In this document: positions 14,249 to 63,779 of the stretch, piece after piece
Numbering within the stretch: the first letter of the stretch is position 1
Layout: each line of letters starts with the position of its first letter
Source: Parcubacteria group bacterium GW2011_GWA2_40_23
GTDB lineage: Bacteria > Patescibacteriota > Patescibacteriia > UBA11705 > JABHMO01
Length of the DNA stretch: 64,000 nucleotides
Direction: 5' to 3'
Assembly (NCBI GenBank): GCA_000996245.1
Contig: LBYP01000002.1
Location: 5,352-69,351 of the forward strand
Translations under genes and position numbers: made by a program
Notes under the pieces: model-generated
What the model was told of the DNA's origin: nothing
The model's input: the letters and a program-made list of their open reading frames with translations, nothing else
Databases searched by the model: none

Positions 14249-14282
14249 AAACCAGTCACTCAAGGTTTCAAGAGGCGAGCAG

Positions 14283-14351
14283 CTTCGTAGTTGCTCGCCT
14301 TTTAAATTTTAGGAAATGAGACAACTCGTCTCTTTTTGTTTATTATGCTAA
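14283..14351 (+). terminator. Two tandem terminators closing island B
   Basis: AGGCGAGC-N12-GCTCGCCT + TTTTAAATTTT (14283-14320), then GAGAC-N5-GTCTC + TTTTTGTTT (14328-14351). Their outer halves, AAGAGGCGAGC and CTCGTCTCTTTTTGTTT, duplicate the host terminator at 13501-13532. Confidence 0.7.
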
Positions 14352-14364
14352 TATTTACTTGAAT

Positions 14365-17396: not shown

Positions 17397-18377
17397 CTAG
17401 TTGGTGAGCACGTGGCTGATGTCCATGTCCGGACTGACGATCAGCTTCTGTGCCGTGTTCTCGCCGATGACCTCGATCGCCTCGTTCGGACCCGTACCCA
17501 GGTTCGGGATGAACCCGATCTGGATGTACGAGTACTGCTCGAGGGGATCGACGTCGCAGCGCACGTCGAAGGCCGTCGTGGTGCCCTTGGGTAGGAAGAT
17601 GTCCGTCAGGTCATGGAAGACGAGCTGCGCGTTCCATCCCTCGGTGTTTACGTAGGGTTGACCCTGGTAGGCCAGGGTGTGGCCACCCGAGATCAGGCTG
17701 CAGTTGCGCACCTTCTCGAAGTGGTCCCCGGTCATCATCATCGACAGCGTGACCTCGGTGAGAACGCCGTCCTCGGCGTAGGCCGTGTCTTCGGCGTCGA
17801 CCATCAGGTAGAACGTGAACAAGTGGACCTGCGAACCTTCGACGAGCAGGTTGCTGGTTTCCTTCTTCCAGACCATGACGGTCGAGAATTGCGGCTCCAT
17901 GTACGGCGCGCAGACTTCTTCGACGGAGCAGTAGAACGTACGGTTGCCCCTGGCGATGGCGTCGTAGAAGGCTTGGAAGTTGCTGTGCCAGACGTTCATC
18001 ATCGCGATCTGCTTCTGCGCCGCGATCCGTCGCAGCTTGTAGGTCGGGATCATGGCGATGGGGTATTTGGGGTCTCCCGCCAAGGCCAGCTTGATCTTCC
18101 AGGTGTTGGTCGTCGCGTTCTGCGTCGCCTTGGCCAGGAACTGGCCCTCGTACTGGAAGTAGTAGCTGATGTTGTCGGTGAAGTTGGTCCACCCGACGCA
18201 GTCGGTGCCGTACCAGTCCGGCAACTGGCCGGTCAGGTTGAAGTAGTCGATGCTTTCCTGGTTGTACGTCTCGGCGACGTACTTGAGGTCGGCGAAGGTC
18301 TGGGGCGGACCGCCCCCGGCGTACGCGGCACTCGAGAAGCACAGGACGGCGAGCAGGGCGATGAGGGTCTTCTTCAT
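17397..18377 (-). CDS. Island C: secreted 326-aa GC-rich protein of unknown function
   Basis: Signal peptide MKKTLIALLAVLCFSSAAYA. GGAGGA lies 7 nt before the ATG. Near-exclusive NNC/NNG codon usage (checked codon by codon). Several Cys residues; no motif I can name. Confidence 0.8.
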   Translation of the reverse strand: MKKTLIALLAVLCFSSAAYAGGGPPQTFADLKYVAETYNQESIDYFNLTGQLPDWYGTDCVGWTNFTDNISYYFQYEGQFLAKATQNATTNTWKIKLALAGDPKYPIAMIPTYKLRRIAAQKQIAMMNVWHSNFQAFYDAIARGNRTFYCSVEEVCAPYMEPQFSTVMVWKKETSNLLVEGSQVHLFTFYLMVDAEDTAYAEDGVLTEVTLSMMMTGDHFEKVRNCSLISGGHTLAYQGQPYVNTEGWNAQLVFHDLTDIFLPKGTTTAFDVRCDVDPLEQYSYIQIGFIPNLGTGPNEAIEVIGENTAQKLIVSPDMDISHVLTN

Positions 18378-18447
18378 CTCGGATTCCTCCTTCGGACGTT
18401 TCGAACCTTAGATCGATGGTGTACATCACCAATCTCTCTTTGGCACC

Positions 18448-18476
18448 ATTCTAGCATGTTTTTAATAAATTGTCAA
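18448..18476 (-). promoter_or_regulatory. Sigma70-type promoter of island C
   Basis: Reverse strand TTGACA (18476-18471), 17-nt spacer atttattaaaaacatgc, TAGAAT (18453-18448); ~64-nt leader. Confidence 0.7.
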
Positions 18477-18499
18477 ACCTATTTTCATCGTTTTGCGAG

Positions 18500-18520
18500 C
18501 CTGCCTGCCGGCCAGGCAGG
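18500..18520. other. Isolated GC hairpin ~25 nt upstream of the island C -35 box
   Basis: CCTGCCTG-ccggc-CAGGCAGG, 8-bp perfect stem, no T-tract on either strand. Confidence 0.4.
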
Positions 18521-18661
18521 GAGCACTTTCGTTAAAAAGCGACGTGGCAATCTCTAATTCGATTTCTAATTAATCAAATCAATAGGTTATACATTTTTAT
18601 TCGTAAATTTAGCAAAATACTAGATACTGTCTAAGCGAACCTAACTGCAAATCGAGGATAC

Positions 18662-18696
18662 TAATCATGATAATCATGAAAATCATAGTTAATCAT
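18662..18696 (-). repeat. Phased array of four ATGATTA-like heptamers abutting the island D terminator
   Basis: taatcat at 18662, 18671, 18690 and aaatcat at 18680 (period 9-10 bp). Homologous to the array at 299-344. Confidence 0.6.
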
Positions 18697-18699
18697 GGC

Positions 18700-18735
18700 A
18701 AAAAAGAGCCCCACCGTTCGCGACGAACGGTGGGG
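18700..18735 (-). terminator. Intrinsic terminator of island D
   Basis: Reverse strand CCCCACCGTTCG-tcg-CGAACGGTGGGG (12-bp perfect stem) followed by CTCTTTTTT. Confidence 0.8.
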
Positions 18736-18740
18736 CAGGG

Positions 18741-19364
18741 CTAGAAGTTCCAGACCAGGCGCAGGTACAGCACGTGGTCACCCGCGATCTCCGGCGTGAA
18801 GTCGTAGGCGACCCAGATTCGGCCCGCGCCGAGCAAGATCGAGGGGCCGATGGCCGCCTCGTCGAACGTCTTCTCGGAGAAGAAGTTCTCCTGGACGATG
18901 CCGAACCCAGCGATGTTGCCTGGCTTCATCCAGTCGAGGGTGGTCAGCGTGTAGTAGTTCCGCTGCACGTGCCCCTTGTCGCCGTCGACAGGGAAGTAGA
19001 CGTCGCCCTCGACGCACAGGAGCAGGTCGCTTGGCAAGGGCTGCGTGAGCCAGATGCTCGCGAGAGCGGACATGCCGCCGTCGTTGGTCATCCAGAGACC
19101 TCCCAGGAGCTTGAGGTTCGTCTTCGTCGACAGGACGCTCATCTCCGGCCCGAAGTAGCCGAAGATCATGGAGTTGCCGCGCATTGACACCAGGCCGGTG
19201 GCGTGGGCGTAGATGCCGCCCGTGATGTTCTCGCTGAGCGTGAACGGGGAGAAGGTTCGGCCCAGGGTGACCAGGAACTGGCCGTTGGACTCGACCTTGG
19301 CCTCGGCGGCCGTGGGGATGATCATCGCACACAGCAACAGGATCACGAGCAGGAAGCGCTTCAT
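18741..19364 (-). CDS. Island D: 207-aa secreted protein with outer-membrane beta-barrel-like features
   Basis: Start placed at MKRF (ATG 19364) with GGAGG 5 nt upstream. Signal peptide MKRFLLVILLLCAMIIPTAAEA. Gly/aromatic-rich alternating pattern. C-terminus YLRLVWNF has hydrophobic residues at positions -1, -3, -5, -7 and a terminal Phe (classical OMP beta-signal). Confidence 0.7.
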   Translation of the reverse strand: MKRFLLVILLLCAMIIPTAAEAKVESNGQFLVTLGRTFSPFTLSENITGGIYAHATGLVSMRGNSMIFGYFGPEMSVLSTKTNLKLLGGLWMTNDGGMSALASIWLTQPLPSDLLLCVEGDVYFPVDGDKGHVQRNYYTLTTLDWMKPGNIAGFGIVQENFFSEKTFDEAAIGPSILLGAGRIWVAYDFTPEIAGDHVLYLRLVWNF

Positions 19365-19409
19365 CGAAGCCTCCAAAGTGGTGTGACGTCCCGTGAAACA
19401 GGACATTCT

Positions 19410-33697: not shown

Positions 33698-34678
33698 ATG
33701 CGACGTATGTATAATTCAGATAAGCCTATAATTAAACATATCCCCGACTTCCTCGACTACCTCGAGATTGAAAAAGGTCTGGGAAATAAAACGCAAGAAA
33801 ACTACGCGCGTTTTTTACATCGTTTCTCGGAATGGTTGCAGCAGAACAATCAAGAGAAGCTTCTCCCCCACGAATTAAGCCCGGAGCTCGTTTGGGCTTA
33901 TCGTGTATATTTGTCGCGCGAAACAAAATCTAGAAGAAAGAACGAGGACTTTTTGAAAAAATCAACCCAGAATTATTATTTGATTGCCTTGCGCGGATTA
34001 TTGAATTTTTTCACAGAAAGAGATATTAATGCGATTCCTGGTGAAAAAGTTAAACTGGCTAAAAACTTAAAGGAACATAGCATTCATTTTTTAAATCTTG
34101 ATCAAATTAAACAATTATTAGAAGCTCCTGATATTAAACATACTCCTGGTTTAAGAGATCGAGCCATTCTCGAAAGCCTCTTTTCAACTGGATTACGCGT
34201 AGCTGAGCTGGCTAAATTAAATCGAGAAGATTTTAAAGTAAAAGATGGTGTTGTTTTTTTAGAACTTAATGTCATGGGTAAAGGAAGTCATCCTCGAGTA
34301 GTTTATTTTTCCGAGCGAGCTTTAAACTGGATAAAAGCATATTTAGCAAAGCGTGCAGATATTGACCCTGCCCTCTTTATTAATTATAAGCCAGGAAAAA
34401 ATGAAGTTAATGATCGGCGTTTAACGGTTCGTTCGATTGAAGTAATTGTAAAAAAATATGTAAAAATAGCCGGACTACCACTAACAACAACTCCACATAC
34501 GTTGCGACATTCATATGCCACGGACTTGTTGACACAGGGTGTCGATTTGAGGCTTGTTCAGGAGTTTTTGGGTCATCGAAGTATTTCGACGACTCAAATA
34601 TATACTCACGTGACTAACAAGAATCTGCGTGATGTTTACTTGAAATATCATAGTGGCGCACAAGATAAAAAATATTAA
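33698..34678 (+). CDS. Tyrosine site-specific recombinase, XerC/XerD family
   Basis: C-terminal catalytic motifs HTLRHSYATDLL and LGHRSISTTQIYTHV; N-terminal SAM-like domain. Confidence 0.85.
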   Translation: MRRMYNSDKPIIKHIPDFLDYLEIEKGLGNKTQENYARFLHRFSEWLQQNNQEKLLPHELSPELVWAYRVYLSRETKSRRKNEDFLKKSTQNYYLIALRGLLNFFTERDINAIPGEKVKLAKNLKEHSIHFLNLDQIKQLLEAPDIKHTPGLRDRAILESLFSTGLRVAELAKLNREDFKVKDGVVFLELNVMGKGSHPRVVYFSERALNWIKAYLAKRADIDPALFINYKPGKNEVNDRRLTVRSIEVIVKKYVKIAGLPLTTTPHTLRHSYATDLLTQGVDLRLVQEFLGHRSISTTQIYTHVTNKNLRDVYLKYHSGAQDKKY

Positions 34679-35069: not shown

Positions 35070-35315
35070 ATGTCAAAACTAGTTGATTTTTTGAAGTTTC
35101 CGTGGCTAATTAGAAGCATACGTGAAATAAAAATTTTGTATTTAATTGTTTTTGTGATGTTGGCGGTACAAACAATTTTGTCCGCTCTTTTATTTATGCG
35201 TCTCGAGAAGCTTGATAATAGCTTTATCGATTACCGCGAAACATCCATGAAACGAATTAACCAGATTTACGGTCAGGTCTATTCCCTATCGTCGAGAATT
35301 GAAAATAAAAAATAA
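35070..35315 (+). CDS. Small single-TM protein (81 aa), same architecture as 34690-34959
   Basis: One TM helix plus a short helical tail. The stop overlaps the next ATG (TAATG). Confidence 0.5.
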   Translation: MSKLVDFLKFPWLIRSIREIKILYLIVFVMLAVQTILSALLFMRLEKLDNSFIDYRETSMKRINQIYGQVYSLSSRIENKK

Positions 35316-38300
35316 TGTATTTATATAATATAAAAATAAAATTTAGTATGACAAAAACAATTTTCATGAATCGTGCTTTTGTCAGTATTATCGCCGTGGT
35401 TACTGTTTTTACCATGAGCGGTATTGCTGGCTTAATACAACCGGCTAACGCAGCTAATCCCCCGCTTGATCCACCGTTAACAACGGCACTAGTTTATTCT
35501 AATCTTGTTGAACCAACAAATTTGACTGTTGGCGTGGATGGAAGTGTTTTGATTGCTGATTTTGACCTTCAAGGAAATGATCAACCATTAAGTAGTTTTA
35601 TGGTTTATGTTGAACCTGTAGGAGATTTTGACCCAGCAACTGATTTGGGTGCAGAAGGTTTGGCAAGTTTCACTCTTGGAATTGTTGAATCACCACAGGG
35701 GCCAGATGACGTTTTATTAAGTTTTATTGGAAACACTCCCATGGTTGGTTCGGGATTCTTTACTGGTATGTATGCTTATCAACTAACTCCAACCGGTTCA
35801 GATCCTTTAATTTCCAGTACCCTTACCACGTACTACCTAAACGCCGTGTATACGGATACGGCCGTTGTTGGGCATTCATTTGTGGTAAAAATCACTTCCC
35901 TTTCTGTTGCTTCTGGTGAATCTGCTGCAGTTTTTACGAACGTAGTTGGAGGTGATCCTGCATTACTAACAACAGAAACAATGACTTTTGTTGAAGGCGA
36001 AGAACCACCACCGGGTGGGGATGGTTTTTCCTTGGTCGCCTACGGTCCGATGCAACAAATGACTATTCCTAAATACGCTCCTGTAGATTTTTTCTTCAAT
36101 GAAGATTTAAATAGCGCTGTGAGAGCAGATTTAGATAGTTATTTTCAAACAGACCCGGTAGTTGCTGGCAATTGGAATCTCTATGATGAATATTGGGGCG
36201 AAAATCATATTTATCATGTTGGGTTTTTTCCGGCTGATGGTTGGGAGACAGGTACGTCTTACAATGTTAAAGCAGCAAAAAGCATTACAAACACTGAGGA
36301 TGAAGCATTTTCATTGGATTTGGGTGGCGGTGATGGTTTTGAATATGGTGACATGGCTTCTGACGAACTTTTTTATTATTTTACTGTTGTCGGTAGTGAT
36401 CAAGAAGACAGTGGTTACTTCCCTCCCATGGCTTTCTTGGGTTATCCTAATAATGAAATGCATAATGTACCAACAAGTTTACAACAGATAGGTGTTGAAT
36501 TTGATCGTAATGATATGGATGCTACAACGTTTACTAACGAAAATATTTATTTAGTCAAAGTTTCACCTGGCGGTGGCGAAGAGACGGTTGATGATGTAGA
36601 ACTATCCCCTGCAAGCGGCTTATCTGGCTCTGTAAGTTTGTCTGGATTTACATTAGAGGCAAATACTAAATATAGGGTTTATGTAACTCGCGATGTCATG
36701 GATAGCCGCGGGAATCGACTAGCTGGACAATTTAGTCAAGGTAGTGAACCCGGTCCCTTTACGAGCAGTTTTTATACTGGTGGAGGTTCAGATCAGCTTA
36801 TAGCTAGGTACATGGGCACAAATTTGAATTTTTTTAGAAATGGTGCCGGACAAATTGTTAACGTCCCCACGGCTGAAAATGTTCGACTATCATTTGACAA
36901 TCCTTTAATGGCCTCATCATTAACGGGCAATATTACAATTGAACCAAGCTTGGGCTGCGGTGAAGGTGGAGATTTATCTTTGTCGTATGATGCCAACTCT
37001 TTTGAAGCAATTGTAATCCCAAACTGTCTTTTTACCGCTTCAACTTCTTATACCTTAAGCTTTGAAGATTTAATGTCGGTTACGGGAACGGAGGTTAACG
37101 CTGGTAGTCTTGTTTTCACGACAGGACTAGCAGATGCCGCACAACCAACAATAAATTCTGTTATGGCCGACAATTATGGTTTGATAATTGAATTTAACGA
37201 GCCAATGGACACTACTCTTGCAGAAAACAAAGGAAACTATGCCTTAAAAGTGCGGAATGATGCTACAGACTGGGCAGAAGTTACAGCCACTCCACTTTCA
37301 AATGCTGTTGTCAGATATGAAAGTGATAATAAAACCGTGTTCATAGATATCTCATTGACTGCTGGGTCTGAATATCAAGTAACTGTCAGCAGCAATTTAA
37401 CAGATTTATCTGACAATCCCCTTTTGACTGATGGCGGTGTTAATGTTCGTACCGGTTATGTTATGGACGCGTCAAAATTTGCGGGCGGTCAAGGAAACCA
37501 AGGCATGGGTGGTAGTACTTTCGACATGGGAAACATGGGAGAAATGCCAATTGCTGTACGACCTATGTCAAAATTAGTTGGAGTTACAACAAAATATTTT
37601 GTTGATTTACCGATAAGTCAACAAATTAATGCTGGTGGCAAAATTGAATTTTGGTTCCCACAGGGATTTATAACGAGTGCTGCGATTCGTGATGCGCAAA
37701 GTCCAGTAAATGGTGACTTTAATCAACCAGCACCAGGTAAACCAAGTTTTGCGAATACAGATCCTGCCGGCACAACCAGTAATGGTGTTGCCAATGATGG
37801 TATTGGCATAATCGGCGAGCGAACTATTGTAATTAAGTTGAGCGAGGGTACTATGCCACAGGATTTTTTGCGTATCGACCTTGATGGCATTGTCAATTCT
37901 TCTACTGTGAAAAAAGAAGATACGGCAGGTTGGCAGGTCAGCATAATGACATATAATTCTTCAGGTGTAATGTTAGAAGGGCTTACATCAATGCCATTTT
38001 ATACGAGTGCTGGTGGTACAAATTCATTGACGGTTGACATTGATGGCGTTAGTGACGGTGACGATGGTTCTTTGGGAGTTTACCTATTCTCCCCCATGAC
38101 CGGTCAAATTATGCAAACAGCGACAATTACGGGCGATGAGTCAGAAGGGGTGGCCGATGGTAGTGTCACTTTCAATAATTTAGATGATGGACAATATGAG
38201 TTCTTCACAGATAAAAATGCACAACTAGATGGCAATATGTACTATGGGAATTCATTTATGGATAGTATTTCGCTGTCAGGCGGTGAGGATGAAACAAGAG

Positions 38301-41300
38301 AAATTATCTTTTCTGATCCTGCAACGCAAGACAATTTATACGCATTAGAAGTTACATTAATTGGAGATTTTACAACCGATGGCGAAAATGACAATGTTGA
38401 TATTTTTGCTGGTTCACCAAATGGATTTCGGGTTATCACGGCTTCACCGGGCAATACTGCTGGTTATCCTGTGACTCTATATTTACCTGATGGTGAATGG
38501 AATGTCGGTATGGGGCCGGCCATGTCTGCAACATCAACGATGGCTTCTCAAATAGATTGGATGCCACCACAAAATCAATTTGTTAAGGTTTGGAATAATG
38601 GATGGAATGCGAGCGTGCAAGAAGTAATATTGGATAGCAGTAATATAGAACAGTATTCAATCAGCGGATCAGTTGTTGATGAAAATGATGTTGGAATTGC
38701 TGATGTTGAAGTTTATGCCTATCAACCGCAAGCAAGTTTCGGAAAACAAAGTGTTAAAACGCAGTCAGATGGTTCTTTTGTCTTGAACGTAGGCTGGCCG
38801 GGTGTTTATACTCTTGGTACAAATAAAAATGGTTTTCCGGAGTCTTCACAGCAATCGATTGCGGTTAATGATGATGTCTCTGATGTTAGTTTTGTGTTGA
38901 AAAAACCAGCTTTTACAATTTCTGGCATGGTAAAAGATTATAATGGTAATGGCGTCCCTAACGCTCCTGTTTGGTCCTATCAAACAGCGGGTGGATTTGG
39001 CTGGTCTGGGACATCAACAGACGTAACAGGTTCATTTATTCTTTATGTTGATACGGGTACTTGGATGGTTGAATCAGACCCAAAAAGTGTCGGGTGGATG
39101 CAATACTCTGATGCAATTGAAATAACAGATGAATCTGTCAGTGGCATTACACTCCAACCAGATACTGATCTTGATTATGTAACCATAACAGGAAATGTAA
39201 GCATAGATGGTAATGCATATACGTACGGACCTATTCGGGCTGTAAAATACAATGCCAATGGGTCATTCGCTGGTCAGCAATATGGTGGTCAAACTGATAG
39301 TCAAGGAGATTATTCAATAACAGTACCAGAAGGAATTTATCGTGTAGATATTTGGGCTCCTGGTTATGGAGAGATTGAACGAACAGACTCTGATGATTAT
39401 CCAAATAACCCTGCAAACGTAAATGCAACCAGTGGCAATGTTGACGGAGTTGATATTACTGTCGGTGCGGATGACTTAATTGATGTCAGCGTTAATTTTA
39501 CAAATCTCGATAGCGGCGAATATGACGGTGTGTCAGCTTTTGTAACACTTAGTGCTGTTAACTTGGGGACAGGAATCCCTACCGGATACAAAAACAATAT
39601 CATGATCAAAAACATTGCTGACCCAACTTTTGATAATATTGTTAAGGTCAAGGAAGGAAATTATTTTGCCTTTGTTCAAGTGCCAGGGTATGGTGAATTT
39701 ATTCCGTTAGAGGGCCAACTAAATGCGGCCACAACACCAGGATACATTGATGTAGGCGCTGGAAGTACCGATAGTAATACACTCACTATTGATCTTCCGG
39801 ATGTAGATAATTTAATTACAGTCACTGGCTCTGTAATTGATGCAGAAGAAAGTCCAGTAGAAAATGCTTGGGTGACAATCAATAACATGGAAAAAGGTTT
39901 TAATCGCGGAGTTAATACTGATAGTAGCGGTGAATTTTCGATTAATTTACCGGTTCTTCAATCAGGAAATTATAATATTGCTGTTGGTAAACCAGGTTAT
40001 ATGGCTGTGACGCCAGAAGCTGTTGATTTAACTGATGTAAATCTAAATGGTATTGCTGATGCATTATATGAATTTACACTTCAACAGCAAACAGCACTTA
40101 TTACAGGTAATATATTTGCTGATAAAGATGGAGGCACAAATAATGTTCTTGATGTGGGAGAAGGTCTCGCTTATGGTTGGATCTTTGCTCAAGAAACAAT
40201 TACAGGTCTAGTAAGTAATACACCTGTTGATGGCAAAGGATATTATCAACTTGGAGTTGTTAATGGTACCTGGGAAGTTTTTGGTAATGCGGATGGATAT
40301 GAACAAACACAGTATAAATCGGGCGGAGTACCTGCAACGATTGTTGTCAACAATGGAAACCAAACCAACAAAAATATTGAACTTGGTTTGCGTGCAGATT
40401 GGAACAAAAAAACCAAAAAGAGCCCCATGACTTTGAATCAAGGTGGTACTATTGATGATTCAGCTTCAACCGGAACTGGTGTTAAATTGGTTGTTCCAGC
40501 GAATGCCATGGGGACATCAAGTTCTTCTGGGTCATTCAATATATCGAACACAACATCAGTTGGTTCATCTAATACGTCTAGACCCTTTGGTATGGAAGGA
40601 AAAGTTGTTAGTGCTGTTGATGCAGATGGTCAACCAATCACGACATTAAGCGATTACATTGACATTGAAATGGTTGTTTGGAAATCAGAAGTTGATGCTG
40701 AAATTGCAGCTGAAAGAATGACTGAAATGTCTGATCTTTTATCCGCTCAACTTGGGTATTATGACAATTCAACAGATAATTGGGTCGCATTAGAAACAAC
40801 GCGTGTCGCCTACTATCAAGAAAATGAAGATGATGCAGAATGGAAAACTTACATTAGCGATGATGAAACATTAAATGATTATGAAGCTTTTATTACGGAT
40901 GCTTTGATTGACGAAACCTTCACTGCTTATTTCGACTATAAGCTTGTTTTCACAGCCAAAACAAACCACTTAACGACTTTTGGGGTAACAACCGCGCTCG
41001 GTGTTGCCGGTGGCGAGGAATCAGCTAATGATGCACCAAGAAGCACTAGCGGCGCCGGTTCAGCTGTTATTCTTGTAACTGAAACAATTGTAGACAAAGC
41101 TATTACAGTTCCCCTTTCAACTTCATCATCAACAGTAGTTTTATCAAAGGCAGGGACTATGAATTTTACAAGCTCCGGTTTAGCTCATAGTTTAACGCTC
41201 AAAAATGTTGATGTGACTGGTCAGTCAGCAATTTTAGTAGTAGCGAGTACCCCCTTCGAAGTAACGGCTAAATTGAACAAGGCGGAATTAGTAGACATAA

Positions 41301-42001
41301 ATAAAGATGGTGTTAATGACATGGAAGTCTTGTTAACAGCGATAAATTCAGCAAATGATGTGAAATTAACAGTGAAGTTATTAGTTGGGGCGAGTATAGT
41401 CCCTCCAGGAGCCGTTGTGACACCAACTCCTGTAGCTGAAACACCCGCAACCACAGCTGTTACCACAGAGTATATGCCTCGTAAAGCTGCTGTGATTAAT
41501 CTTATGAGTGAACAGCAGGCCTTAACTGACTTCATTGCTTTGACAAAACTCGTACCAAACACGCAAGCCGACAACTGGGTAGTAGATTACCTTGCTTATG
41601 GTAATTCAACTCGTACCTTGGCAATGTCAGCTCGAGAAAGAAAGGGCATCTTGGAAGATTTTATCTCAATTTATGGCAACTTACCTAAGACTGAAAGTGA
41701 TTGGAAGGCTCTAGCTGAAATAGCGGCCGGTAAAGTCACTCCTAAGCGTGTTATTGCTCAGGAAGTTAAAGCGATCAAGGAATTCTTTAAAATCTTTAAG
41801 AAGACTGTTAATTTTAAAGATAAAACCAACGAATCCTTTGTTCACAAATTGTCTTATAGAATGCGAGTTGATCAGCGGAATTTAGCTAAGGAGCAAACAG
41901 CTTTAACTAAATTTATAAAAGTGTATCAAAAGAAGCCTTGGGATGGATATGCTTGGTCGATTGTGAGAGCACTCGCCTATTCTGGGATATTAGACAAATA
42001 A
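35315..42001 (+). CDS. Giant (2228 aa) secreted/cell-surface protein with Ig-like and CarboxypepD_reg-like repeats (alternative start ATG 35348)
   Basis: Signal/anchor NRAFVSIIAVVTVFTMSGIAGLIQPANA. Repeated modules of the type ISGSVVDENDVGIADVEVYAY...SDGSF and VTGSVIDAEESPVENAWV...TDSSGEF. Thr/Ser/Gly/Asp-rich and Cys-poor. Confidence 0.85.
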   Translation: MYLYNIKIKFSMTKTIFMNRAFVSIIAVVTVFTMSGIAGLIQPANAANPPLDPPLTTALVYSNLVEPTNLTVGVDGSVLIADFDLQGNDQPLSSFMVYVEPVGDFDPATDLGAEGLASFTLGIVESPQGPDDVLLSFIGNTPMVGSGFFTGMYAYQLTPTGSDPLISSTLTTYYLNAVYTDTAVVGHSFVVKITSLSVASGESAAVFTNVVGGDPALLTTETMTFVEGEEPPPGGDGFSLVAYGPMQQMTIPKYAPVDFFFNEDLNSAVRADLDSYFQTDPVVAGNWNLYDEYWGENHIYHVGFFPADGWETGTSYNVKAAKSITNTEDEAFSLDLGGGDGFEYGDMASDELFYYFTVVGSDQEDSGYFPPMAFLGYPNNEMHNVPTSLQQIGVEFDRNDMDATTFTNENIYLVKVSPGGGEETVDDVELSPASGLSGSVSLSGFTLEANTKYRVYVTRDVMDSRGNRLAGQFSQGSEPGPFTSSFYTGGGSDQLIARYMGTNLNFFRNGAGQIVNVPTAENVRLSFDNPLMASSLTGNITIEPSLGCGEGGDLSLSYDANSFEAIVIPNCLFTASTSYTLSFEDLMSVTGTEVNAGSLVFTTGLADAAQPTINSVMADNYGLIIEFNEPMDTTLAENKGNYALKVRNDATDWAEVTATPLSNAVVRYESDNKTVFIDISLTAGSEYQVTVSSNLTDLSDNPLLTDGGVNVRTGYVMDASKFAGGQGNQGMGGSTFDMGNMGEMPIAVRPMSKLVGVTTKYFVDLPISQQINAGGKIEFWFPQGFITSAAIRDAQSPVNGDFNQPAPGKPSFANTDPAGTTSNGVANDGIGIIGERTIVIKLSEGTMPQDFLRIDLDGIVNSSTVKKEDTAGWQVSIMTYNSSGVMLEGLTSMPFYTSAGGTNSLTVDIDGVSDGDDGSLGVYLFSPMTGQIMQTATITGDESEGVADGSVTFNNLDDGQYEFFTDKNAQLDGNMYYGNSFMDSISLSGGEDETREIIFSDPATQDNLYALEVTLIGDFTTDGENDNVDIFAGSPNGFRVITASPGNTAGYPVTLYLPDGEWNVGMGPAMSATSTMASQIDWMPPQNQFVKVWNNGWNASVQEVILDSSNIEQYSISGSVVDENDVGIADVEVYAYQPQASFGKQSVKTQSDGSFVLNVGWPGVYTLGTNKNGFPESSQQSIAVNDDVSDVSFVLKKPAFTISGMVKDYNGNGVPNAPVWSYQTAGGFGWSGTSTDVTGSFILYVDTGTWMVESDPKSVGWMQYSDAIEITDESVSGITLQPDTDLDYVTITGNVSIDGNAYTYGPIRAVKYNANGSFAGQQYGGQTDSQGDYSITVPEGIYRVDIWAPGYGEIERTDSDDYPNNPANVNATSGNVDGVDITVGADDLIDVSVNFTNLDSGEYDGVSAFVTLSAVNLGTGIPTGYKNNIMIKNIADPTFDNIVKVKEGNYFAFVQVPGYGEFIPLEGQLNAATTPGYIDVGAGSTDSNTLTIDLPDVDNLITVTGSVIDAEESPVENAWVTINNMEKGFNRGVNTDSSGEFSINLPVLQSGNYNIAVGKPGYMAVTPEAVDLTDVNLNGIADALYEFTLQQQTALITGNIFADKDGGTNNVLDVGEGLAYGWIFAQETITGLVSNTPVDGKGYYQLGVVNGTWEVFGNADGYEQTQYKSGGVPATIVVNNGNQTNKNIELGLRADWNKKTKKSPMTLNQGGTIDDSASTGTGVKLVVPANAMGTSSSSGSFNISNTTSVGSSNTSRPFGMEGKVVSAVDADGQPITTLSDYIDIEMVVWKSEVDAEIAAERMTEMSDLLSAQLGYYDNSTDNWVALETTRVAYYQENEDDAEWKTYISDDETLNDYEAFITDALIDETFTAYFDYKLVFTAKTNHLTTFGVTTALGVAGGEESANDAPRSTSGAGSAVILVTETIVDKAITVPLSTSSSTVVLSKAGTMNFTSSGLAHSLTLKNVDVTGQSAILVVASTPFEVTAKLNKAELVDINKDGVNDMEVLLTAINSANDVKLTVKLLVGASIVPPGAVVTPTPVAETPATTAVTTEYMPRKAAVINLMSEQQALTDFIALTKLVPNTQADNWVVDYLAYGNSTRTLAMSARERKGILEDFISIYGNLPKTESDWKALAEIAAGKVTPKRVIAQEVKAIKEFFKIFKKTVNFKDKTNESFVHKLSYRMRVDQRNLAKEQTALTKFIKVYQKKPWDGYAWSIVRALAYSGILDK

Positions 42002-45074: not shown

Positions 45075-45103
45075 TTGACAAAATTGTAATTATTTGCTAT
45101 TAT
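45075..45103 (+). promoter_or_regulatory. Sigma70-type promoter of island G
   Basis: TTGACA (45075-45080), 17-nt spacer aaattgtaattatttgc, TATTAT (45098-45103); ~110-nt leader. Confidence 0.7.
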
Positions 45104-45220
45104 TACCTGTTATTCAAGTGTTTACCTTAGCTTTTTGAGGCTGAGTTAATTTCCGCCTTTTAAAGGTGTAGTGAACACCACAAGTGATCTGTTCCCCAAC
45201 CATCCGTGAGGAGGTGCCTG

Positions 45221-46735
45221 ATGCTGTACCAGAAACTGCTCGATGCGAAGATCGGAGTCGGTCCGGCCACCATCACCAAGCTCGACGAGGCGGGTCTCAA
45301 GACCGCCGAGGCCATCCTGGCCGCCGGGCTCGACGGGCTGCGCGCCATCAAGGTCTTCCCGCCGATCGCGGGCAAGATCCTCGAGGTCGCGCTCGCCAAC
45401 CCGACGCCCGCCACCGAGATCGAGGCCGCGTCGGCCCCGATCATCCTCCACCCCGACGACGCGGCCAAGGTGGCCGAGGTCGCCCCCACCACCACGAAAA
45501 ACGAGACCCCCGCGGTCCTGGTCAAGCGGCAGACGGTGTTCGCCGCCAAGCTCGAGGAGGCCGCCAAGGCCAACGGTACGACGGTGGAGGAGCTCCGCGC
45601 CGCCGCCAAGGCCAACGTGCCGGCCGAGAAGCCGGTCGTGGTGACCCACAAGACCCTGGCCAAGCCCGAGAACGAGCACGTGAACTTCATCGACGTCGGG
45701 ATCGAAACCCCGACCGAGTTCACGAGCCCCGTGCGTCTGCGCGACTTCTTCGACAAGCTGCCCAAGGGGCAGGTGCCGGACAGCGCGCGCTACATCAAGA
45801 ACCTCTTCCCCGTCTGCGCGATGTGTCGCGCCGCGGGCAGCACGAAGACCCTCCAGATCGACCACGTGCACGTGCTCGTGGTCACCCGTCTCGACGGCAG
45901 CGTCAACAGCGGTTTGTTCTGCGACGACCACATCACGGTGGCGTACGGACAGGCCAAGGACCTGGTCAAGGACGGGAAGCTGAAGGAGGTCAAGATCATC
46001 TGGCTGCGCGAGGCGTGGGCCAACCTGACCCGCGCGTACAGGGCGCAGGTCGACGAGGCGCGCGAAGAGCGCTACCGCAAGGAGCGCGCCGACCGCCGCA
46101 CGGCCGCCCTCCGGGCCGTGATGGAGGATCTCGGCTCGGTGACCAGCGAGCACTGGATGACCGACGAGCAGCTCGGCAGCTACGTGTCGCCCATGGACGT
46201 CCCGGTCTTCACGTGCGGACTCGAGGCGAAGCAGGCCCGTGAGCTGCACCTCCTGCCCAACGACAAGGAGAAGGGTACGTTCAAGGGGCGCTGGGGGCGG
46301 TTCTACGACGAGTACGGCATCCGGCTCGTCATGCGGCCCCCGCAGGACCTGACCCAGCACAACACGCTCGTCCAGCACTTGCGGGACGACGCCAAGGCCG
46401 CCCAGGCCACGCCGTTCTTCCCCGTCGTCCTGGTCCGCCGTTACTTCGGTGACGACCTGGGCTGGCGCTACCTGGCGATCCACGAACTGGTCATCGAGGA
46501 GTTCGTGGCGACCTACGAGCAGGCGCACAACTTCAAGGTGCGCACCGGGGCCATGGCCTACGAGTGGCTGACCCGTCGCTGGGAGGTCCAGCGCGAAGAA
46601 GCCGCCAAGGCCGCGGCGCAGGCGTTCGCCAAGAGCGACGAAGGCAAGGCGCTGAACGCCTTCCTCAACGCCGCCCCGGACGACGAGGCCGCCGCCGACA
46701 GCGCCCTGTTGGCCGGCAGCGCCCACAAGAAGTAA
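45221..46735 (+). CDS. Island G: 504-aa GC-rich protein with N-terminal helix-hairpin-helix pair and a CxxC..DH..N..CxxH (HNH-like) motif
   Basis: GAGGAGG lies 6 nt before ATG 45221. HhH-like KIGVGPATITKLDEAG and LRAIKVFPPIAGKILE. Cys/His motif VCAMCRAAGSTKTLQIDHVHV...VNSGLFCDDH (nt 45815-45931). Strong G/C third-position bias only in this frame. Confidence 0.75.
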   Translation: MLYQKLLDAKIGVGPATITKLDEAGLKTAEAILAAGLDGLRAIKVFPPIAGKILEVALANPTPATEIEAASAPIILHPDDAAKVAEVAPTTTKNETPAVLVKRQTVFAAKLEEAAKANGTTVEELRAAAKANVPAEKPVVVTHKTLAKPENEHVNFIDVGIETPTEFTSPVRLRDFFDKLPKGQVPDSARYIKNLFPVCAMCRAAGSTKTLQIDHVHVLVVTRLDGSVNSGLFCDDHITVAYGQAKDLVKDGKLKEVKIIWLREAWANLTRAYRAQVDEAREERYRKERADRRTAALRAVMEDLGSVTSEHWMTDEQLGSYVSPMDVPVFTCGLEAKQARELHLLPNDKEKGTFKGRWGRFYDEYGIRLVMRPPQDLTQHNTLVQHLRDDAKAAQATPFFPVVLVRRYFGDDLGWRYLAIHELVIEEFVATYEQAHNFKVRTGAMAYEWLTRRWEVQREEAAKAAAQAFAKSDEGKALNAFLNAAPDDEAAADSALLAGSAHKK

Positions 46736-46757
46736 CGTTCAACAACGTTCGTAGCCG

Positions 46758-46795
46758 CCTCCCGAGGACTCATTTCTCGGGGGGCGCTTTTTTTT
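46758..46795 (+). terminator. Terminator of island G; its T-tract runs into the -35 box of island H
   Basis: CCTCCCGAG-N9-CTCGGGGGG followed by CGCTTTTTTTT. The last Ts are the first bases of TTGACA at 46794. Confidence 0.7.
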
Positions 46796-46822
46796 GACAA
46801 ATATACACCTGAACTCTATGAT
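46794..46822 (+). promoter_or_regulatory. Sigma70-type promoter of island H
   Basis: TTGACA (46794-46799), 17-nt spacer aatatacacctgaactc, TATGAT (46817-46822). Confidence 0.7.
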
Positions 46823-46855
46823 TGTACTAAGTGGTACTGTTCTAAGGAGCGTGGC

Positions 46856-47473
46856 ATGAATGCGAAACATCTTCCTCCGCCCACTCCCACGACGCTCTCC
46901 GAAGCGTTTTGGCCCCTGTTCATGACGAACAAAGTGATGGTGCGTTTTGTCGGTGCGTATATCTGCTTCGGCGTGGCAGATGACAGCAACCGACTACTCG
47001 TAGTGTATGCACACGACACTGCCAGCCGATTGCATCTTCCTACACAGGAAGCAATTGCTCGAGCGTTCCCTCTGCGGAATGCCAAACAACAAGAATACAC
47101 CGGACCACATGATCTGCCAGTGTCGTACAGTGACATTCAACGAGTTCGCAACGTGATGCGTTATGAGTTTCTTCAGGAAAACCGGCGCGTCTTACTGCTT
47201 GTTTCGACTCCTGAGGAGTCGGTAGTTGAAAACCAGGAACAACTCATGTTCATCCAATGGAGTAGACCGAACCCACTTCAAATTGCTCGCATCGTCGAAA
47301 CTATTGGTGCGGATCGTGTCCACGTCGTACGAAAAAATGCGCTGGAAACGCGCCTCCTGGTGGAGTTGAAACCCAATGAACGATTGAAGTTCTCTGTGAC
47401 CGGTTGCCACTTCAGCAGCCCCTTTGCAACTGCGGCTCTGTTGCCGGTGCAGTGCGACACCTGCACTGCTTGA
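46856..47473 (+). CDS. Island H: 205-aa protein of unknown function (intermediate GC)
   Basis: AAGGAG lies 6 nt before the ATG. Bounded by its own promoter and terminator. No recognisable motif. C-terminal Cys pair CDTC. Confidence 0.65.
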   Translation: MNAKHLPPPTPTTLSEAFWPLFMTNKVMVRFVGAYICFGVADDSNRLLVVYAHDTASRLHLPTQEAIARAFPLRNAKQQEYTGPHDLPVSYSDIQRVRNVMRYEFLQENRRVLLLVSTPEESVVENQEQLMFIQWSRPNPLQIARIVETIGADRVHVVRKNALETRLLVELKPNERLKFSVTGCHFSSPFATAALLPVQCDTCTA

Positions 47474-47477
47474 AAAT

Positions 47478-47518
47478 AAGCCAGCCTTGATCCTCGAATC
47501 TTGGCTGGCTTTCTTTTT
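47478..47518. terminator. Terminator after island H, shared with the convergent wecG-NUDIX gene
   Basis: AAGCCAGCC-N16-GGCTGGCTT followed by TCTTTTT; A-rich on the other side. Confidence 0.7.
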
Positions 47519-47529
47519 ACAAAATAAAT

Positions 47530-48735
47530 CTAAATTTCATCAATAAATTTTTTGGTAAATTCTTGTCGAACCGGATGTAATAGTTTTAATAGTTCATCTT
47601 TTTTGACCCACTTGATGGCAGCGACTTCCCTATTTGGTCGGAATTGATTTGAGTCGATAGCCCCGCTATATTCTACTAAAAATGCAATTTGCTTTTGTCC
47701 TTTGTACCCATGAAGTAATTGATAATGTTTTGGTGAGATATAGGCATGTTCTGCCTTAATTCTTTTAACTACTTTCATCTTATCTAATTCGAATCCGAGC
47801 TCTTCATTAATTTCACGCAGGATTGCAATCTCAATATTCTCGTTTTTATCAACGCCGCCTTGTGGAAATTGCCAGTGATTGGGAAGATGAGCATTTTCTT
47901 GAATTAAATATAGACCGTCTTTGTTTTTTATAACGCCGAGAACATTGGCACGATATTCTGTTTTAATTCTTTTAGCCCATTTATGACATTCTAAAAGAAA
48001 ATCTGCGGTGGCATGTTTAATGCGCATCAACCTTTTTGGTTCTTGATAAAGTCTAAAGAGCCATTCCATTCCCAGTTCTTGCATTAACTTTGGCGCGCGC
48101 TTTATCTTGCCTGATAAAAAATCAAAAGATCCCCCGACACCCAATGCTATTCTGACTGATGATCCATACCCCTTATCCCCTATCCCTTTTCCCAAATTGT
48201 TTTCAATCCACTCCTCTTGTTCTGGCGCACCCAAACAGACAAACAATACTTGAGTTTGATGCTTTTTGATTTTGTCCAAAAGAACTTTATCAGCGATTGG
48301 AGTTTTAGCGGATAAAGCACATCCAAGTTTAACTTGAGGATATGAATTATCGAAAAACTTTTTTAGGTCCTCAAGCGTTGTTAGCGAATCGTTTCGTAGA
48401 AGTACAAAAACACGAGCCGAGTTGTTTTGGCCTAATAGTTCGCGCGTGAAGTCAGCGCCTGTGACTCGGTTTTTTAAATCTGTTCCAAGTATTTTGGCAC
48501 CGAGTTTGAGCCCAAAGCCATCTGGCAAATTTAAGTCTGCCGAGTTCAATGTGTCTTTGTATTCTTCCGAGCTTGCAGCTTTTAAGCAGATTTCTGGGTT
48601 GGGCGTATAAACGCTATGGGGAGCATCCGAGGCCATGAACTCCCTGGTTTTTTCAAGAAAATATTCCAAAGGCTGGTCGTCTATTTTAACGCCAAGAATT
48701 ATCGCTTTGTTTTGTAGGTCTTTGGGGACGTTCAT
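47530..48735 (-). CDS. Fusion protein: WecG/TagA/CpsF-family glycosyltransferase + C-terminal NUDIX hydrolase
   Basis: GAPEQEEWI ... GVGGSFDFLSGKIKRAP ... GMEWLFRL (WecG/TagA motifs), then NUDIX box GGVDKNENIEIAILREINEELG. Start at MNVPKDL (48735), because the track extension overlaps the clpB promoter. Confidence 0.8.
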   Translation of the reverse strand: MNVPKDLQNKAIILGVKIDDQPLEYFLEKTREFMASDAPHSVYTPNPEICLKAASSEEYKDTLNSADLNLPDGFGLKLGAKILGTDLKNRVTGADFTRELLGQNNSARVFVLLRNDSLTTLEDLKKFFDNSYPQVKLGCALSAKTPIADKVLLDKIKKHQTQVLFVCLGAPEQEEWIENNLGKGIGDKGYGSSVRIALGVGGSFDFLSGKIKRAPKLMQELGMEWLFRLYQEPKRLMRIKHATADFLLECHKWAKRIKTEYRANVLGVIKNKDGLYLIQENAHLPNHWQFPQGGVDKNENIEIAILREINEELGFELDKMKVVKRIKAEHAYISPKHYQLLHGYKGQKQIAFLVEYSGAIDSNQFRPNREVAAIKWVKKDELLKLLHPVRQEFTKKFIDEI

Positions 48736-61219: not shown

Positions 61220-62215
61220 TTAATTTAAAAATAATTTTGTATCAAGGGCAAAAATGCGATCGGAAAAATCTGCCGGAGAGCCTTGATTATCGAAGATAGC
61301 TTTATCAGCGACGTTAACCTTAGTAGATAGATCATCCAAATGATTTAGCGCAACTGCTTCGCGTGTTTGTGGTAAAACAGGGCTACCAAACTCTAAACGG
61401 CCATGATGACTGGCAATTAAATGTAGCACTTTTGTTTTTAATAAATCAGGAAAATCTTTTATACTCTCGATAGCTTTAGACACAGCAATTGTGCCTAACA
61501 TTAAATGACCAATGAGCGCCCCATCAACAGTACGAAAAATTGTATGATTTACATCCAATTCATCGAGTTTGCCAATGTCATGTAATAAAACTCCAGTCTT
61601 TAAAAGATCTTTATCTATTCTTGTAAAACTGGCACATAAACATTCTGCTAATGCAAGCATCTCGGATACATGTTCTACAAAACCACCAACGTAAGCATGA
61701 TGTATACGTTCTGCTGCCGGAGCTTTCTTGAACTTTTCGATAAATTTTTCATCTTTAAAAAAAGAATTTACGAGTTTCTTTAAATCATCATTCTCGATAC
61801 TATCGACTTGTTTTAAAATTGTTTTGAAGAGCGCTTCTAAATCCTTCTCTGATCCGGGTAGAAAATCGGCTGTTTCTTGATTTTGAGCTTTTTGTAAAAA
61901 TGAAATTATAAGTTGATTTTTTTCTTTAAATTCATTGACCTTGCCTCCAAGACTAATGATGTCACCAATCTCAAACTCATCACAATTGTTCAAATTATCT
62001 TCCCAAATTTTAGCTGTTATTTCACCGGTTCGATCAGCTAAAATAAGGTCAATAAAATCTTTATTTTGGCTGGTTTTCCCTTTTTTAATGTCTCGTACTA
62101 CTGCTAAAAAATTGGCGACTTGGTCTCCGGCTTGTAAATCCTTGATGAATTTATCTTTCATATTTGATTGTTTTTTATGATTTGTGACCTCTTCTATAAA
62201 TGAAAGTTGAGTCAT
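61220..62215 (-). CDS. YhaM-like OB-fold + HD-domain 3'-5' exoribonuclease (alternative start 62161)
   Basis: N-terminal OB fold (FLAVVRDIKKGKTSQNKDFIDLILADRTGEITAKIW) and HD domain (HHAYVGGFVEH ... LLHDIGK). The track's 80-codon N-terminal extension runs into island I and is rejected. Confidence 0.75.
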   Translation of the reverse strand: MTQLSFIEEVTNHKKQSNMKDKFIKDLQAGDQVANFLAVVRDIKKGKTSQNKDFIDLILADRTGEITAKIWEDNLNNCDEFEIGDIISLGGKVNEFKEKNQLIISFLQKAQNQETADFLPGSEKDLEALFKTILKQVDSIENDDLKKLVNSFFKDEKFIEKFKKAPAAERIHHAYVGGFVEHVSEMLALAECLCASFTRIDKDLLKTGVLLHDIGKLDELDVNHTIFRTVDGALIGHLMLGTIAVSKAIESIKDFPDLLKTKVLHLIASHHGRLEFGSPVLPQTREAVALNHLDDLSTKVNVADKAIFDNQGSPADFSDRIFALDTKLFLN

Positions 62216-62276
62216 AATGCTGTGATTTATACTAAAATAGCGTAAGAGTATAAAATTATTATAGCATTTTTTGAGA

Positions 62277-62312
62277 AATATAAAAGGCGCACTGATCTTG
62301 AGACCAGGCGCC
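62277..62312 (-). terminator. Terminator of island I
   Basis: Reverse strand GGCGC..CTG.TCT..AGA.CAG..GCGCC extended imperfect stem followed by CTTTTATATTT. Confidence 0.6.
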
Positions 62313-62318
62313 AACGTT

Positions 62319-62660
62319 CTACGCAGCTGCAACGATTTTCTTGATTTTTCGACGCAGTTCAATCGCATCGAAAGGCTTGGTGACCACTTCGTCGGGTTGC
62401 TCGGCACAAGAGAAGTGTTCTGGCGGGGCGCTTGAAACCATGATGATGCGAGCATCAGGGCAAAGTCGTCGTGCGTAGACGATGAACTCGGCTCCCGTCA
62501 TTCCAGGCATGTCGTGGTCTGTGACAATGACCCGGGCTGAGCGACCGCTAAGGCATTTTAAGGCCTCGAATGGTGAATGATGCGTTCGGTGTGGCAAAGT
62601 ACCAGCAACAGCCTTGAATAGAGCTAGATTCTCTGGCAGATCATCAACGAAAAGCACCAT
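62319..62660 (-). CDS. Island I: stand-alone CheY-like response-regulator receiver domain (113 aa)
   Basis: VLFVDD acidic pair, VIVTDHDMPGMTG phospho-acceptor Asp context, IIMVSS, TKPF lysine. AGGGAG lies 7 nt before the ATG. GC-rich codons. Confidence 0.8.
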   Translation of the reverse strand: MVLFVDDLPENLALFKAVAGTLPHRTHHSPFEALKCLSGRSARVIVTDHDMPGMTGAEFIVYARRLCPDARIIMVSSAPPEHFSCAEQPDEVVTKPFDAIELRRKIKKIVAAA

Positions 62661-62693
62661 AACATGACTCCCTATGTTGATAAGAGCTTCAAT

Positions 62694-62722
62694 ACTGTAT
62701 ACTAAAAAAAACTTCCTGTCAA
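62694..62722 (-). promoter_or_regulatory. Sigma70-type promoter of island I
   Basis: Reverse strand TTGACA (62722-62717), 17-nt spacer ggaagttttttttagta, TACAGT (62699-62694). Confidence 0.6.
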
Positions 62723-62747: not shown

Positions 62748-63779
62748 TTATTTAAAAAAACAAGCATCTCCAAAACTAAAAAACTTATATTTTTGTTTGA
62801 TAGCTTTTTGATATAGTTCAAGAGTAGTTTTTCGTCCAATAAGTGCGCTGACAAGCATTAAAAGTGATGATTTTGGTAAATGGAAATTAGAAATTAGTGC
62901 GTCAACAAATTTGAATTTGTAACCGGGATAAATAAATATGCTTGTATTTTGTTTAATTGCTTCGTTGCTTAATTGATTATTTGAAAATGCGGTTTCAAGA
63001 GTTCTAAGACTGGTTGTTCCGACTGCAATTATTCTCTTGCCTGCTTTTTTCGCCTTGATTAATTGATTAATTGTTTGTTTGTTTACTTCAATATATTCTG
63101 AATGAATTTGGTAGTCTTCAATCTTTTCAGTATTAACGGGATCGAACGTTCCAAGTCCTACATGCAAAGTGACAAATTCAATTTGACATCCGACTCTTTT
63201 GATTTGGGTCAGCAATTTTTTGGTAAAATGAAGTCCAGCGGTTGGTGCTGCGGCAGATCCTAGTTTTTTTGCATAAATAGTTTGATATTGTTTTTGAAGA
63301 ACACTTTCAGTCGATTTTGAATGAATATAAGGAGGTAATGGCATTTGACCAATTTTAAGTAAAATGCTGTTAAATTTTTTACCCTTAAAATTGAACTCTA
63401 CGAGCCACGTTTTCCCTTCATTTCTAGATATTACTTGAGCCTTTAAACCAGCCTTAAAAAGCAATTTTAGACCAACCTGGGGGTTCCGTAGTCCAAGTAA
63501 GACTTCCCATTTGTGGTCTTCGGTTTGATCTAGCAGCAAAACCTCTGCCCGACCACCACTTTCTTTGTTCCCCATTAAGCGGGCCGGCATAACTTTCGAA
63601 TCATTAAAAACTAAAACGTCGTTTTTAGTTAAATATTTAGGTAGATCATAAAAATGTTTATGCTCAATCTTTTTTGTTTTGCGATCATAAATCAAAAGAC
63701 GCGCACTGTCTCGTGGCGTCGCTGGTTTTTGAGCAATTAATTCTGATGGCAATTTGTAATCAAAAAGTTTTAAATTCAT
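62748..63779 (-). CDS. queA: S-adenosylmethionine:tRNA ribosyltransferase-isomerase
   Basis: N-terminus MNLKLFDYKLPSELIAQKPATPRDSARLL and the GTTSLRTLE block are typical of QueA. Confidence 0.95.
   Translation of the reverse strand: MNLKLFDYKLPSELIAQKPATPRDSARLLIYDRKTKKIEHKHFYDLPKYLTKNDVLVFNDSKVMPARLMGNKESGGRAEVLLLDQTEDHKWEVLLGLRNPQVGLKLLFKAGLKAQVISRNEGKTWLVEFNFKGKKFNSILLKIGQMPLPPYIHSKSTESVLQKQYQTIYAKKLGSAAAPTAGLHFTKKLLTQIKRVGCQIEFVTLHVGLGTFDPVNTEKIEDYQIHSEYIEVNKQTINQLIKAKKAGKRIIAVGTTSLRTLETAFSNNQLSNEAIKQNTSIFIYPGYKFKFVDALISNFHLPKSSLLMLVSALIGRKTTLELYQKAIKQKYKFFSFGDACFFK

Follow-up and report, generated by a model that had tools for sequence, protein, structure and literature searches.

The receiver gene, its neighbours and its orthologues

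Within the window, the 64,000-nucleotide stretch of DNA that was analysed as a whole, a short open reading frame on the minus strand (62319..62660, from ATG to TAG) encodes a receiver-only response regulator of 113 aa, entered in GenBank as KKR07601.1 and KKR55400.1. The gene lies between two others of the same strand, queA (62748..63779; Pfam Queuosine_synth, E 1e-129) and a gene (61220..62215) for a YhaM-like 3'-5' exoribonuclease that combines an OB fold with an HD domain (Pfam HD and tRNA_anti-codon) and scores 211 bits against the NCBIfam YhaM model, under the equivalog cutoff of 460. The window corresponds to positions 5394-69393 of the 177,735-bp contig k141_1228881 (ENA ERZ27254745), and a literature search brought up no paper mentioning this genome.

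The receiver gene is equipped with its own expression signals. A sigma-70-type promoter (62694..62722, minus strand; 10/12 matches in a consensus scan) consists of the -35 box TTGACA (62722-62717), a 17-nt spacer, and the -10 box TACAGT (62699-62694), while a Shine-Dalgarno stretch, GGGAG, can be read 7 nt before the ATG (62668..62672, minus strand). The transcript would end at an intrinsic terminator (62276..62312, minus strand; fold z-score -5.5), in which a hairpin at 62312-62286 (-18.1 kcal/mol) is followed by a U-run, and which a simple terminator scan had missed because the stem has a bulge. In the alignment of the orthologous loci five of the six lineages share the -35 box TTGACA, L014 having TTGACT instead, the 17-nt spacer and a TAnnnT -10 box are kept in all six, and orthologues also possess G-rich, Shine-Dalgarno-like stretches. 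The terminator hairpin and U-run likewise stand at the same place in 6/6 lineages, with stems that differ in sequence but are compensated. The original prediction had credited the gene with a promoter of its own; the conserved -35 and -10 boxes bear this out, and a ribosome-binding site and a terminator can be added to them. The limits then given to the cassette, 62277-62722, match the positions of the terminator (62276-62312) and of the -35 box (62717-62722).

Directly 3' of the receiver terminator follows the extended -10 element of the yhaM-like gene (TGCTATAAT; 62258..62266, minus strand), whose TATAAT hexamer and TG are invariant in four lineages, the element reading TGCTATAAT in three of them and TGTTATAAT in L010. 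With this element of its own, the yhaM-like gene is transcribed apart from the receiver, and since the receiver in turn has both its own promoter and its own terminator, we regard it as monocistronic and co-transcribed with neither neighbour. The string CTTGACAGGAAG, considered as a promoter motif common to the GC-rich islands of the window, occurs at the receiver alone, and no match to Rfam in the window reaches the gathering score.

The receiver is found directly downstream of queA in six Parcubacteria lineages, with protein identities from 88 to 40%, and in five of the six the yhaM-like gene follows it directly. Identity to the window protein amounts to 88% in L001-L004, 55% in L005/L015, 54% in L010, and 40-43% in L013, in each case downstream of queA, and to 51% in L014, in which the next gene downstream seems to be a different one. 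There (L014, 784-915), the gene after the terminator begins with MPPEKPKLTSLETES, unlike the yhaM-like gene, and the contig stops after 44 codons. The junctions of the island were reproduced on 13 contigs from independent assemblies, and hence do not reflect an assembly chimera. Scanning metagenomes with the family profile yielded one extra orthologue (L015), the rest being generic receivers of at most 47% identity (higher values among them were short partial matches), and no informative kinase-linked orthologue.

Between the window and L001 the receiver has a dN/dS of 0.08, and in deeper pairs the synonymous sites are saturated (pS 0.73-0.83). The order of divergence is that of queA and the yhaM-like gene, with a receiver dN about 1.5-2x higher; the flanking proteins share 83-95% identity between the window and L001, and 57-76% in the deepest comparisons. 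On this comparative evidence, the receiver gene is old and has been vertically inherited since before the six Parcubacteria lineages split.

The receiver domain, its predicted fold, and its possible phosphorylation

Pfam recognizes Response_reg (PF00072, CheY-like superfamily) over residues 2-106 of the 113, with 37.5 bits against a gathering cutoff of 30.2, a score that passes and is low for a receiver, and finds no second domain in the protein. The sequence contains the motifs VLFVDD (D6, D7), VIVTDHDMPG (D48), IIMVSS (S76), and TKPF (K95, P96), and in an alignment to TrrA (3a0r_B) D6/D7, D48, S76, and K95-P96 match the catalytic positions of solved receivers. Across the six orthologues no substitution occurs at D6, D7, D48, K95, or P96, and position 76 holds either S or T (T in four lineages); further invariant residues are M51-P52, G56, P79-P80, F97-D98, and R103, and the length is kept at 110-113 aa. 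A single-domain receiver with all canonical residues had been predicted from the sequence, with the reservation that key residues might turn out to be missing on proper alignment; both the Pfam match and the alignment to solved receivers agree with the former, and the reservation falls away, as the residues are present in the TrrA alignment and in all six orthologues. As judged from these sequence data, the locus is a real gene under purifying selection that encodes a complete phospho-acceptor pocket, and its product is a divergent orphan single-domain response regulator which probably works as a phospho-acceptor.

By its sequence, the protein is unusually divergent for a receiver: a HMMER search against 1.84 billion representative proteins returned 2,489 matches at E<=1e-3 and nine at E<=1e-10. 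A divergence of this extent makes a changed function possible. Matches to NCBIfam families all remain far from their cutoffs, NF053512 (HD-GYP-type regulator receivers; 36-55 bits, residues 1-80) being the best partial one. A phage or defence origin was considered and found no backing, as PHROGs returned generic receiver matches alone and PADLOC none for the receiver. Because the nearest multi-domain relatives are mixed, carrying extra receivers, GGDEF, or GAF domains, no ancestral architecture can be named.

An AlphaFold2 model built with 35 sequences is confident (pLDDT 96, pTM 0.89) and has the order beta1-alpha1-beta2-alpha2-beta3-alpha3-beta4, a 14-residue coil (77-90, SAPPEHFSCAEQPD), and beta5-alpha5. 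The model lacks helix alpha4, residues 77-90 being coil by DSSP with pLDDT >90, and we count the protein as having the (beta-alpha)5 receiver fold. The beta4-beta5 linker at these residues contains the invariant P79-P80, following the family consensus [IF]MV[ST]xxPP, here IIMVSSAPP. At the switch position of beta5, Tyr106 in CheY, stands V92, and all orthologues have Val, Ile, or Leu there and never an aromatic residue. S76 and K95 are 19 residues apart, and the corresponding spacing between Ser/Thr and Lys in CheY is 22. By prediction, the protein thus folds as a canonical receiver without helix alpha4 and without the aromatic switch residue.

What might phosphorylate such a receiver? A Pfam check of all genes in the window, direct or by precomputed annotation, found no HisKA, HATPase_c, Hpt, or CheA family, in accord with the earlier statement that the window holds no histidine kinase, CheA, or Hpt gene. 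The same is true of the 5.4 kb that precede the window and the 9.8 kb that follow it, so that the search covered contig positions 1-79172, about 79 kb of the genome, and no histidine kinase lies next to the receiver orthologues either. Over these 79 kb and the orthologue loci, the monocistronic receiver is therefore not half of a classical two-component pair with an adjacent or nearby kinase. Stand-alone receivers encoded apart from their kinase are reportedly common in bacteria, as Galperin's censuses are said to have found. CPR genomes hold about 0.29 histidine kinases per 100 genes, and of the surveyed CPR MAGs 81% have at least one histidine kinase and 19% have none (PMC10805038). Since most CPR MAGs carry kinases, and receivers encoded away from them are common, the absence of a kinase from the 64-kb window says little.

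We favour, with a probability of roughly 0.6, the reading that the gene encodes a functional, independently transcribed stand-alone receiver, vertically inherited in one Parcubacteria clade, which would act as a phosphotransfer intermediary or sink, or as a phospho-dependent partner. Asp48 would receive its phosphoryl group from a histidine kinase whose gene lies elsewhere in the genome, or else from acetyl phosphate. By analogy with other REC-only proteins that lack alpha4, the phosphorylated protein would then more likely serve as a phosphotransfer intermediary, a phosphate sink, or a small phosphorylation-dependent binding partner: given that it has no output domain, a proline-containing linker in place of alpha4, and the aliphatic V92, we think that the classical alpha4-beta5-alpha5 face is not used. 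The putative role as a phosphate sink or as the target of a distant partner, raised together with the prediction of the gene, is a plausible one.

A rather unlikely alternative is that the receiver works without any dedicated kinase, either as a sensor of acetyl phosphate, that is, a metabolic read-out, or as a phosphorylation-independent adaptor. The 79 kb in which no kinase was found, the 19% of CPR MAGs without histidine kinases, and the strong divergence of the receiver would all suit this idea. The whole phosphorylation pocket, however, has been strictly conserved over a long divergence, which argues that phosphoryl chemistry is used; such conservation fits the acetyl phosphate variant and not a phosphorylation-independent role.

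Base composition and the descent of the gene

The receiver coding sequence has a GC content of 0.523 and a GC3 of 0.51, compared with a GC of 0.34 and a GC3 of 0.24-0.25 in queA and the yhaM-like gene, which agrees with the GC-rich cassette originally described between these two genes. In all six lineages the receiver has a GC of 0.47-0.52 and a GC3 of 0.40-0.55, and its flanks a GC of 0.31-0.36 and a GC3 of 0.24-0.36. From host codon usage, 32.6 of the 112 codons of the window receiver would be expected to end in G or C, whereas 56 do (z = 5.1); given host codon usage, the excess reaches z = 3.5-6.1 in five lineages and 1.9 in one, and the 23 host genes that served as comparison set range from -2.1 to +3.1. 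About half of the two-fold codons of the receiver are C- or G-ending, versus 0.22-0.24 in the host, and the excess is smaller at strictly fourfold sites (0.38-0.49 vs 0.26-0.41).

Several candidate causes of this composition were rejected. Selected mRNA structure did not account for it, as shuffles of synonymous codons gave z values of -0.3 to -1.0 in five orthologues and -2.5 in one, like those of control genes. A conserved antisense ORF was likewise discarded, the longest stop-free antisense stretches varying in frame and length among the orthologues, and so was translational selection of the host type, for ATP synthase, MreB, and ClpB genes have C/G-ending two-fold codons at 0.15-0.32 versus about 0.5 in the receiver.

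The original prediction regarded the gene as an odd import, and in its fullest form this would make it a foreign CheY-like cassette that arrived recently from a GC-rich donor, lacks a cognate kinase, and serves as a decoy or phosphate sink. Several facts would suit such an origin, namely the GC of 0.52 against 0.34 in the flanks, a codon usage that departs from the host's in five of six lineages (GC3 z = 3.5-6.1), the location of the nearest outside relative on a GC-rich contig, and the other GC-rich islands of the window, which show that such DNA occurs in this genome. Yet the gene sits at the same junction in six lineages, between which the identity of the flanking proteins falls to 57-76% in the deepest comparisons, and the order of receiver divergence matches that of the flanks. 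Furthermore, no integrase or transposase gene flanks the receiver, and a blastn search for a plasmid origin gave no match. An exact 10-nt direct repeat, TATACTAAAA, at 62228-62237 and 62698-62707 (spacing 470 nt) does bracket the receiver cassette, but is probably no target-site duplication, since chance alone would yield about one such repeat in this AT-rich stretch and each copy shares sequence with a conserved -10-like promoter element. Of the marks of a recent island, the atypical composition (GC 0.52 vs 0.34) is therefore the one observed, and neither patchy presence nor mobility genes nor flanking repeats beyond chance level were found. With the gene beside queA in all six lineages, a dN/dS of 0.08, and a divergence pattern that follows the flanks, the idea of a recent import did not stand up, and we consider it unlikely. 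An ancient transfer before the clade diverged may still have taken place; it cannot be shown, because the nearest relatives outside the clade are at most 40% identical.

The composition itself can be set against a time scale. In a simple two-state relaxation model, a gene starting from a GC3 of 0.95 would have fallen to 0.32 or lower at a pairwise dS of 2.5, and the flanks are at or beyond this distance. Because the receiver is equally GC-rich in all lineages despite saturated synonymous sites, its composition is no evidence of recent transfer. The GC-richness of the receiver is probably maintained, rather than the fading signature of an import, though saturation and the shortness of the gene limit this reading. 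The receiver thereby makes a clear case that GC-rich islands within AT-rich genomes do not always stem from recent import, and an island gene nearby displays the effect to an extreme degree. If the persistence of its composition reflects selection or a local mutational process, this would bear on composition-based detection of horizontal transfer in CPR genomes.

The genes of the other GC-rich islands in the window are orphans without a match in Pfam, NCBIfam, or PHROGs, and with two marginal PADLOC matches (E 0.001 and 0.01). One island (island G; window 45101-47540, corresponding to L100 6001-8329) lies between gltX and a WecG/NUDIX gene and holds two ORFs on the plus strand, each with its own AT-rich TTGACA promoter, Shine-Dalgarno sequence, and terminator. 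The first (45206-46735; 509 aa, GC 0.68, GC3 0.95) has a sole homologue among 5.8 billion proteins, 65% identical, at the same locus in the sister lineage and with a GC3 of 0.94; fourfold sites of the pair differ by 34%, and 50 of the 64 differences are exchanges between C and G. The second (46856-47473; 205 aa, KKR07588.1) has a GC3 of 0.55 and is 85% conserved. Neutral amelioration cannot explain the composition of the 509-aa ORF. This ORF is far odder than the receiver, and it points to the GC-richness of the islands being something other than simple import debris.

It is conceivable, although improbable, that the receiver belongs to a clade-specific set of genes whose GC-rich codon usage is actively maintained in an AT-rich Parcubacteria genome. 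The 509-aa ORF would be the extreme case of this set. If so, the receiver would provide the regulator in a group of genes set apart by their composition, the like of which has not been described in CPR bacteria, and the forces at work could include selection for escape from an A/U-specific ribonuclease or for very stable messages, or localised biased repair or conversion.

Further compositional and genic features were noted along the window. Two orphan genes at 17397-19406, coding for proteins of 326 aa and 221 aa that begin with signal-peptide-like N-termini, are GC-rich and show an extreme codon bias (C-ending NNY 0.96-0.98) and no family match; this island is strain-variable, as its content differs in L096, a contig from another sample, and the 326-aa protein is recorded on one 2.5-kb contig only. 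A 1-kb GC-rich stretch (281-1300, up to 62% GC) occupies a 1.28-kb intergenic gap in which the public annotation places no gene. Its minus strand can be read as two promoter-to-terminator units, about 1270->1030 and 985->340, with no Rfam match beyond two at chance level and a fold z of -2.5 for the shorter unit; these may be non-coding RNAs or unannotated small genes. Another GC-rich island (13601-14360, up to 64% GC) separates a 290-aa gene from an AddB/UvrD-type helicase-nuclease gene, and candidate ORFs on both of its strands gave no Pfam match. Finally, a probable surface protein of 2,228 aa, in which Big_5 and CarboxypepD_reg repeats were recognized, is encoded at 35315-42001, downstream of a tyrosine recombinase gene of the XerC/D or phage-integrase type (33698-34678); the exact 2,228-aa product is absent from the public gene index.

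The receiver among known systems

As a response regulator, the receiver adds little, orphan single-domain receivers being common and most CPR genomes having a few kinases. New is a compact and very divergent receiver family that is restricted to one Parcubacteria clade, predicted to be alpha4-less, and marked by an invariant Pro-Pro linker. In our view, the receiver itself is a modest finding, and the persistent composition, and above all the neighbouring island genes, merit follow-up of their own.

The position of the gene next to an HD protein invites a comparison with receiver-HD enzymes, of which the receiver could be a detached regulatory half that controls the YhaM-like exoribonuclease in trans. 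Besides the adjacency in five of six lineages, the best partial NCBIfam match, NF053512, represents HD-GYP-type receivers, and 2rjn and 3hv2, receivers of HD-domain proteins, are among the top structural matches. Against this stand the terminator between the two genes, each of which has its own promoter, and the apparently different downstream gene in L014. Since synteny extends far beyond the pair, the adjacency reflects relatedness and not a functional link; moreover, the nearest multi-domain relatives carry GGDEF, GAF, and extra receivers rather than HD, and every NCBIfam score is far under its cutoff. Compared with the HD-GYP/RpfG-type receivers themselves (NF053512 'NosR family'; 2rjn, 3hv2), the Parcubacteria receiver has no output domain, scores far under the family cutoff of 400 bits, and loses its similarity where alpha4 would begin. 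We regard a control of the exoribonuclease in trans as hardly likely. The old GenBank name, which suggests a best match in a PAS/GGDEF protein, and the long chance ORFs that occur in GC-rich DNA might raise the suspicion that the ORF is spurious, or that it is what decay has left of a larger response regulator. The selection and conservation data already refute both ideas, with a dN/dS of 0.08, a conserved length of 110-113 aa, invariant catalytic residues, a conserved promoter, Shine-Dalgarno sequence, and terminator, a confident fold prediction, and no conserved antisense ORF.

Returning to the functional stand-alone receiver that we prefer, its best match among solved structures is TrrA of the Thermotoga maritima ThkA/TrrA system (PDB 3A0R chain B, 3A10, 3A0U), with an E value of 3.7e-7 for the single sequence and 2.8e-11 for the family profile. 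TrrA is likewise receiver-only, at 116 aa, and the DD, D, T/S, and K positions all align. The match is nevertheless weak (33 bits, with about a quarter of positions identical), and the TrrA structure was obtained as a complex with ThkA, its kinase, whereas the Parcubacteria receiver has no known kinase.

CheY has in common with our receiver the fold and the catalytic residues. The scores against the CheY families, however, are 17 bits for NF007901 (cutoff 189) and 17 bits for NF041367 (cutoff 200), V92 replaces the aromatic residue at the Tyr106 position, and the region contains no CheA, chemotaxis, or flagellar switch genes.

Outside the clade, the closest single-domain relative is a metagenomic receiver of 124 aa, P0026, with 40% identity over 103 residues. 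Its linker is also short and proline-containing (FIMLTGAPDQF, compared with FIMVTGTPPDQF in L005). On its contig of 59-67% GC (L099, 6248-8375), P0026 directly follows a 578-aa multi-pass membrane kinase with HisKA and HATPase_c domains. In contrast to the Parcubacteria gene, which stands alone, P0026 therefore comes directly after its kinase in a classical two-gene arrangement, and from a GC-rich organism. By analogy, the P0026-kinase pair may serve as a model for the ancestral partner of our receiver; a descent of the receiver from a kinase-regulator pair of the ordinary type, perhaps one of a GC-rich organism, would fit these sequences, although an identity of 40% is not proof.

In predicted architecture, the receiver resembles the FATGUY group (Sma0114, SdrG, MrrA, and the CckA receiver), in which alpha4 is replaced by the beta4-beta5 linker and beta5 has no aromatic switch residue. 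The members of this group combine a canonical phosphorylation site with a short conserved motif where beta4 ends (PMC9981736); the corresponding motif of the Parcubacteria receivers is [IF]MV[ST]xxPP. According to the AlphaFold2 model and the orthologue alignment, our receiver shares both the missing alpha4 and the non-aromatic beta5, but in place of the motif PFxFATG[G/Y] that defines the group (PMC9981736) it has IIMVSSAPP, and we do not file it as a FATGUY member because this motif is absent despite the similar architecture. The two also differ in taxonomy, Alphaproteobacteria versus Parcubacteria, and no HWE/HisKA2 kinase or Hpt partner is known for the receiver. Helices are reported to be missing from Rec-only proteins (Sma0114, SdrG), from the CckA receiver, and from accessory receiver-like domains, and domains of this kind are argued to act in phosphotransfer, probably without allosteric control of the alpha4-beta5-alpha5 face (PMC9981736). 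Alongside these examples, the family described here widens the known range of minimal receivers that are probably phosphotransfer intermediaries.
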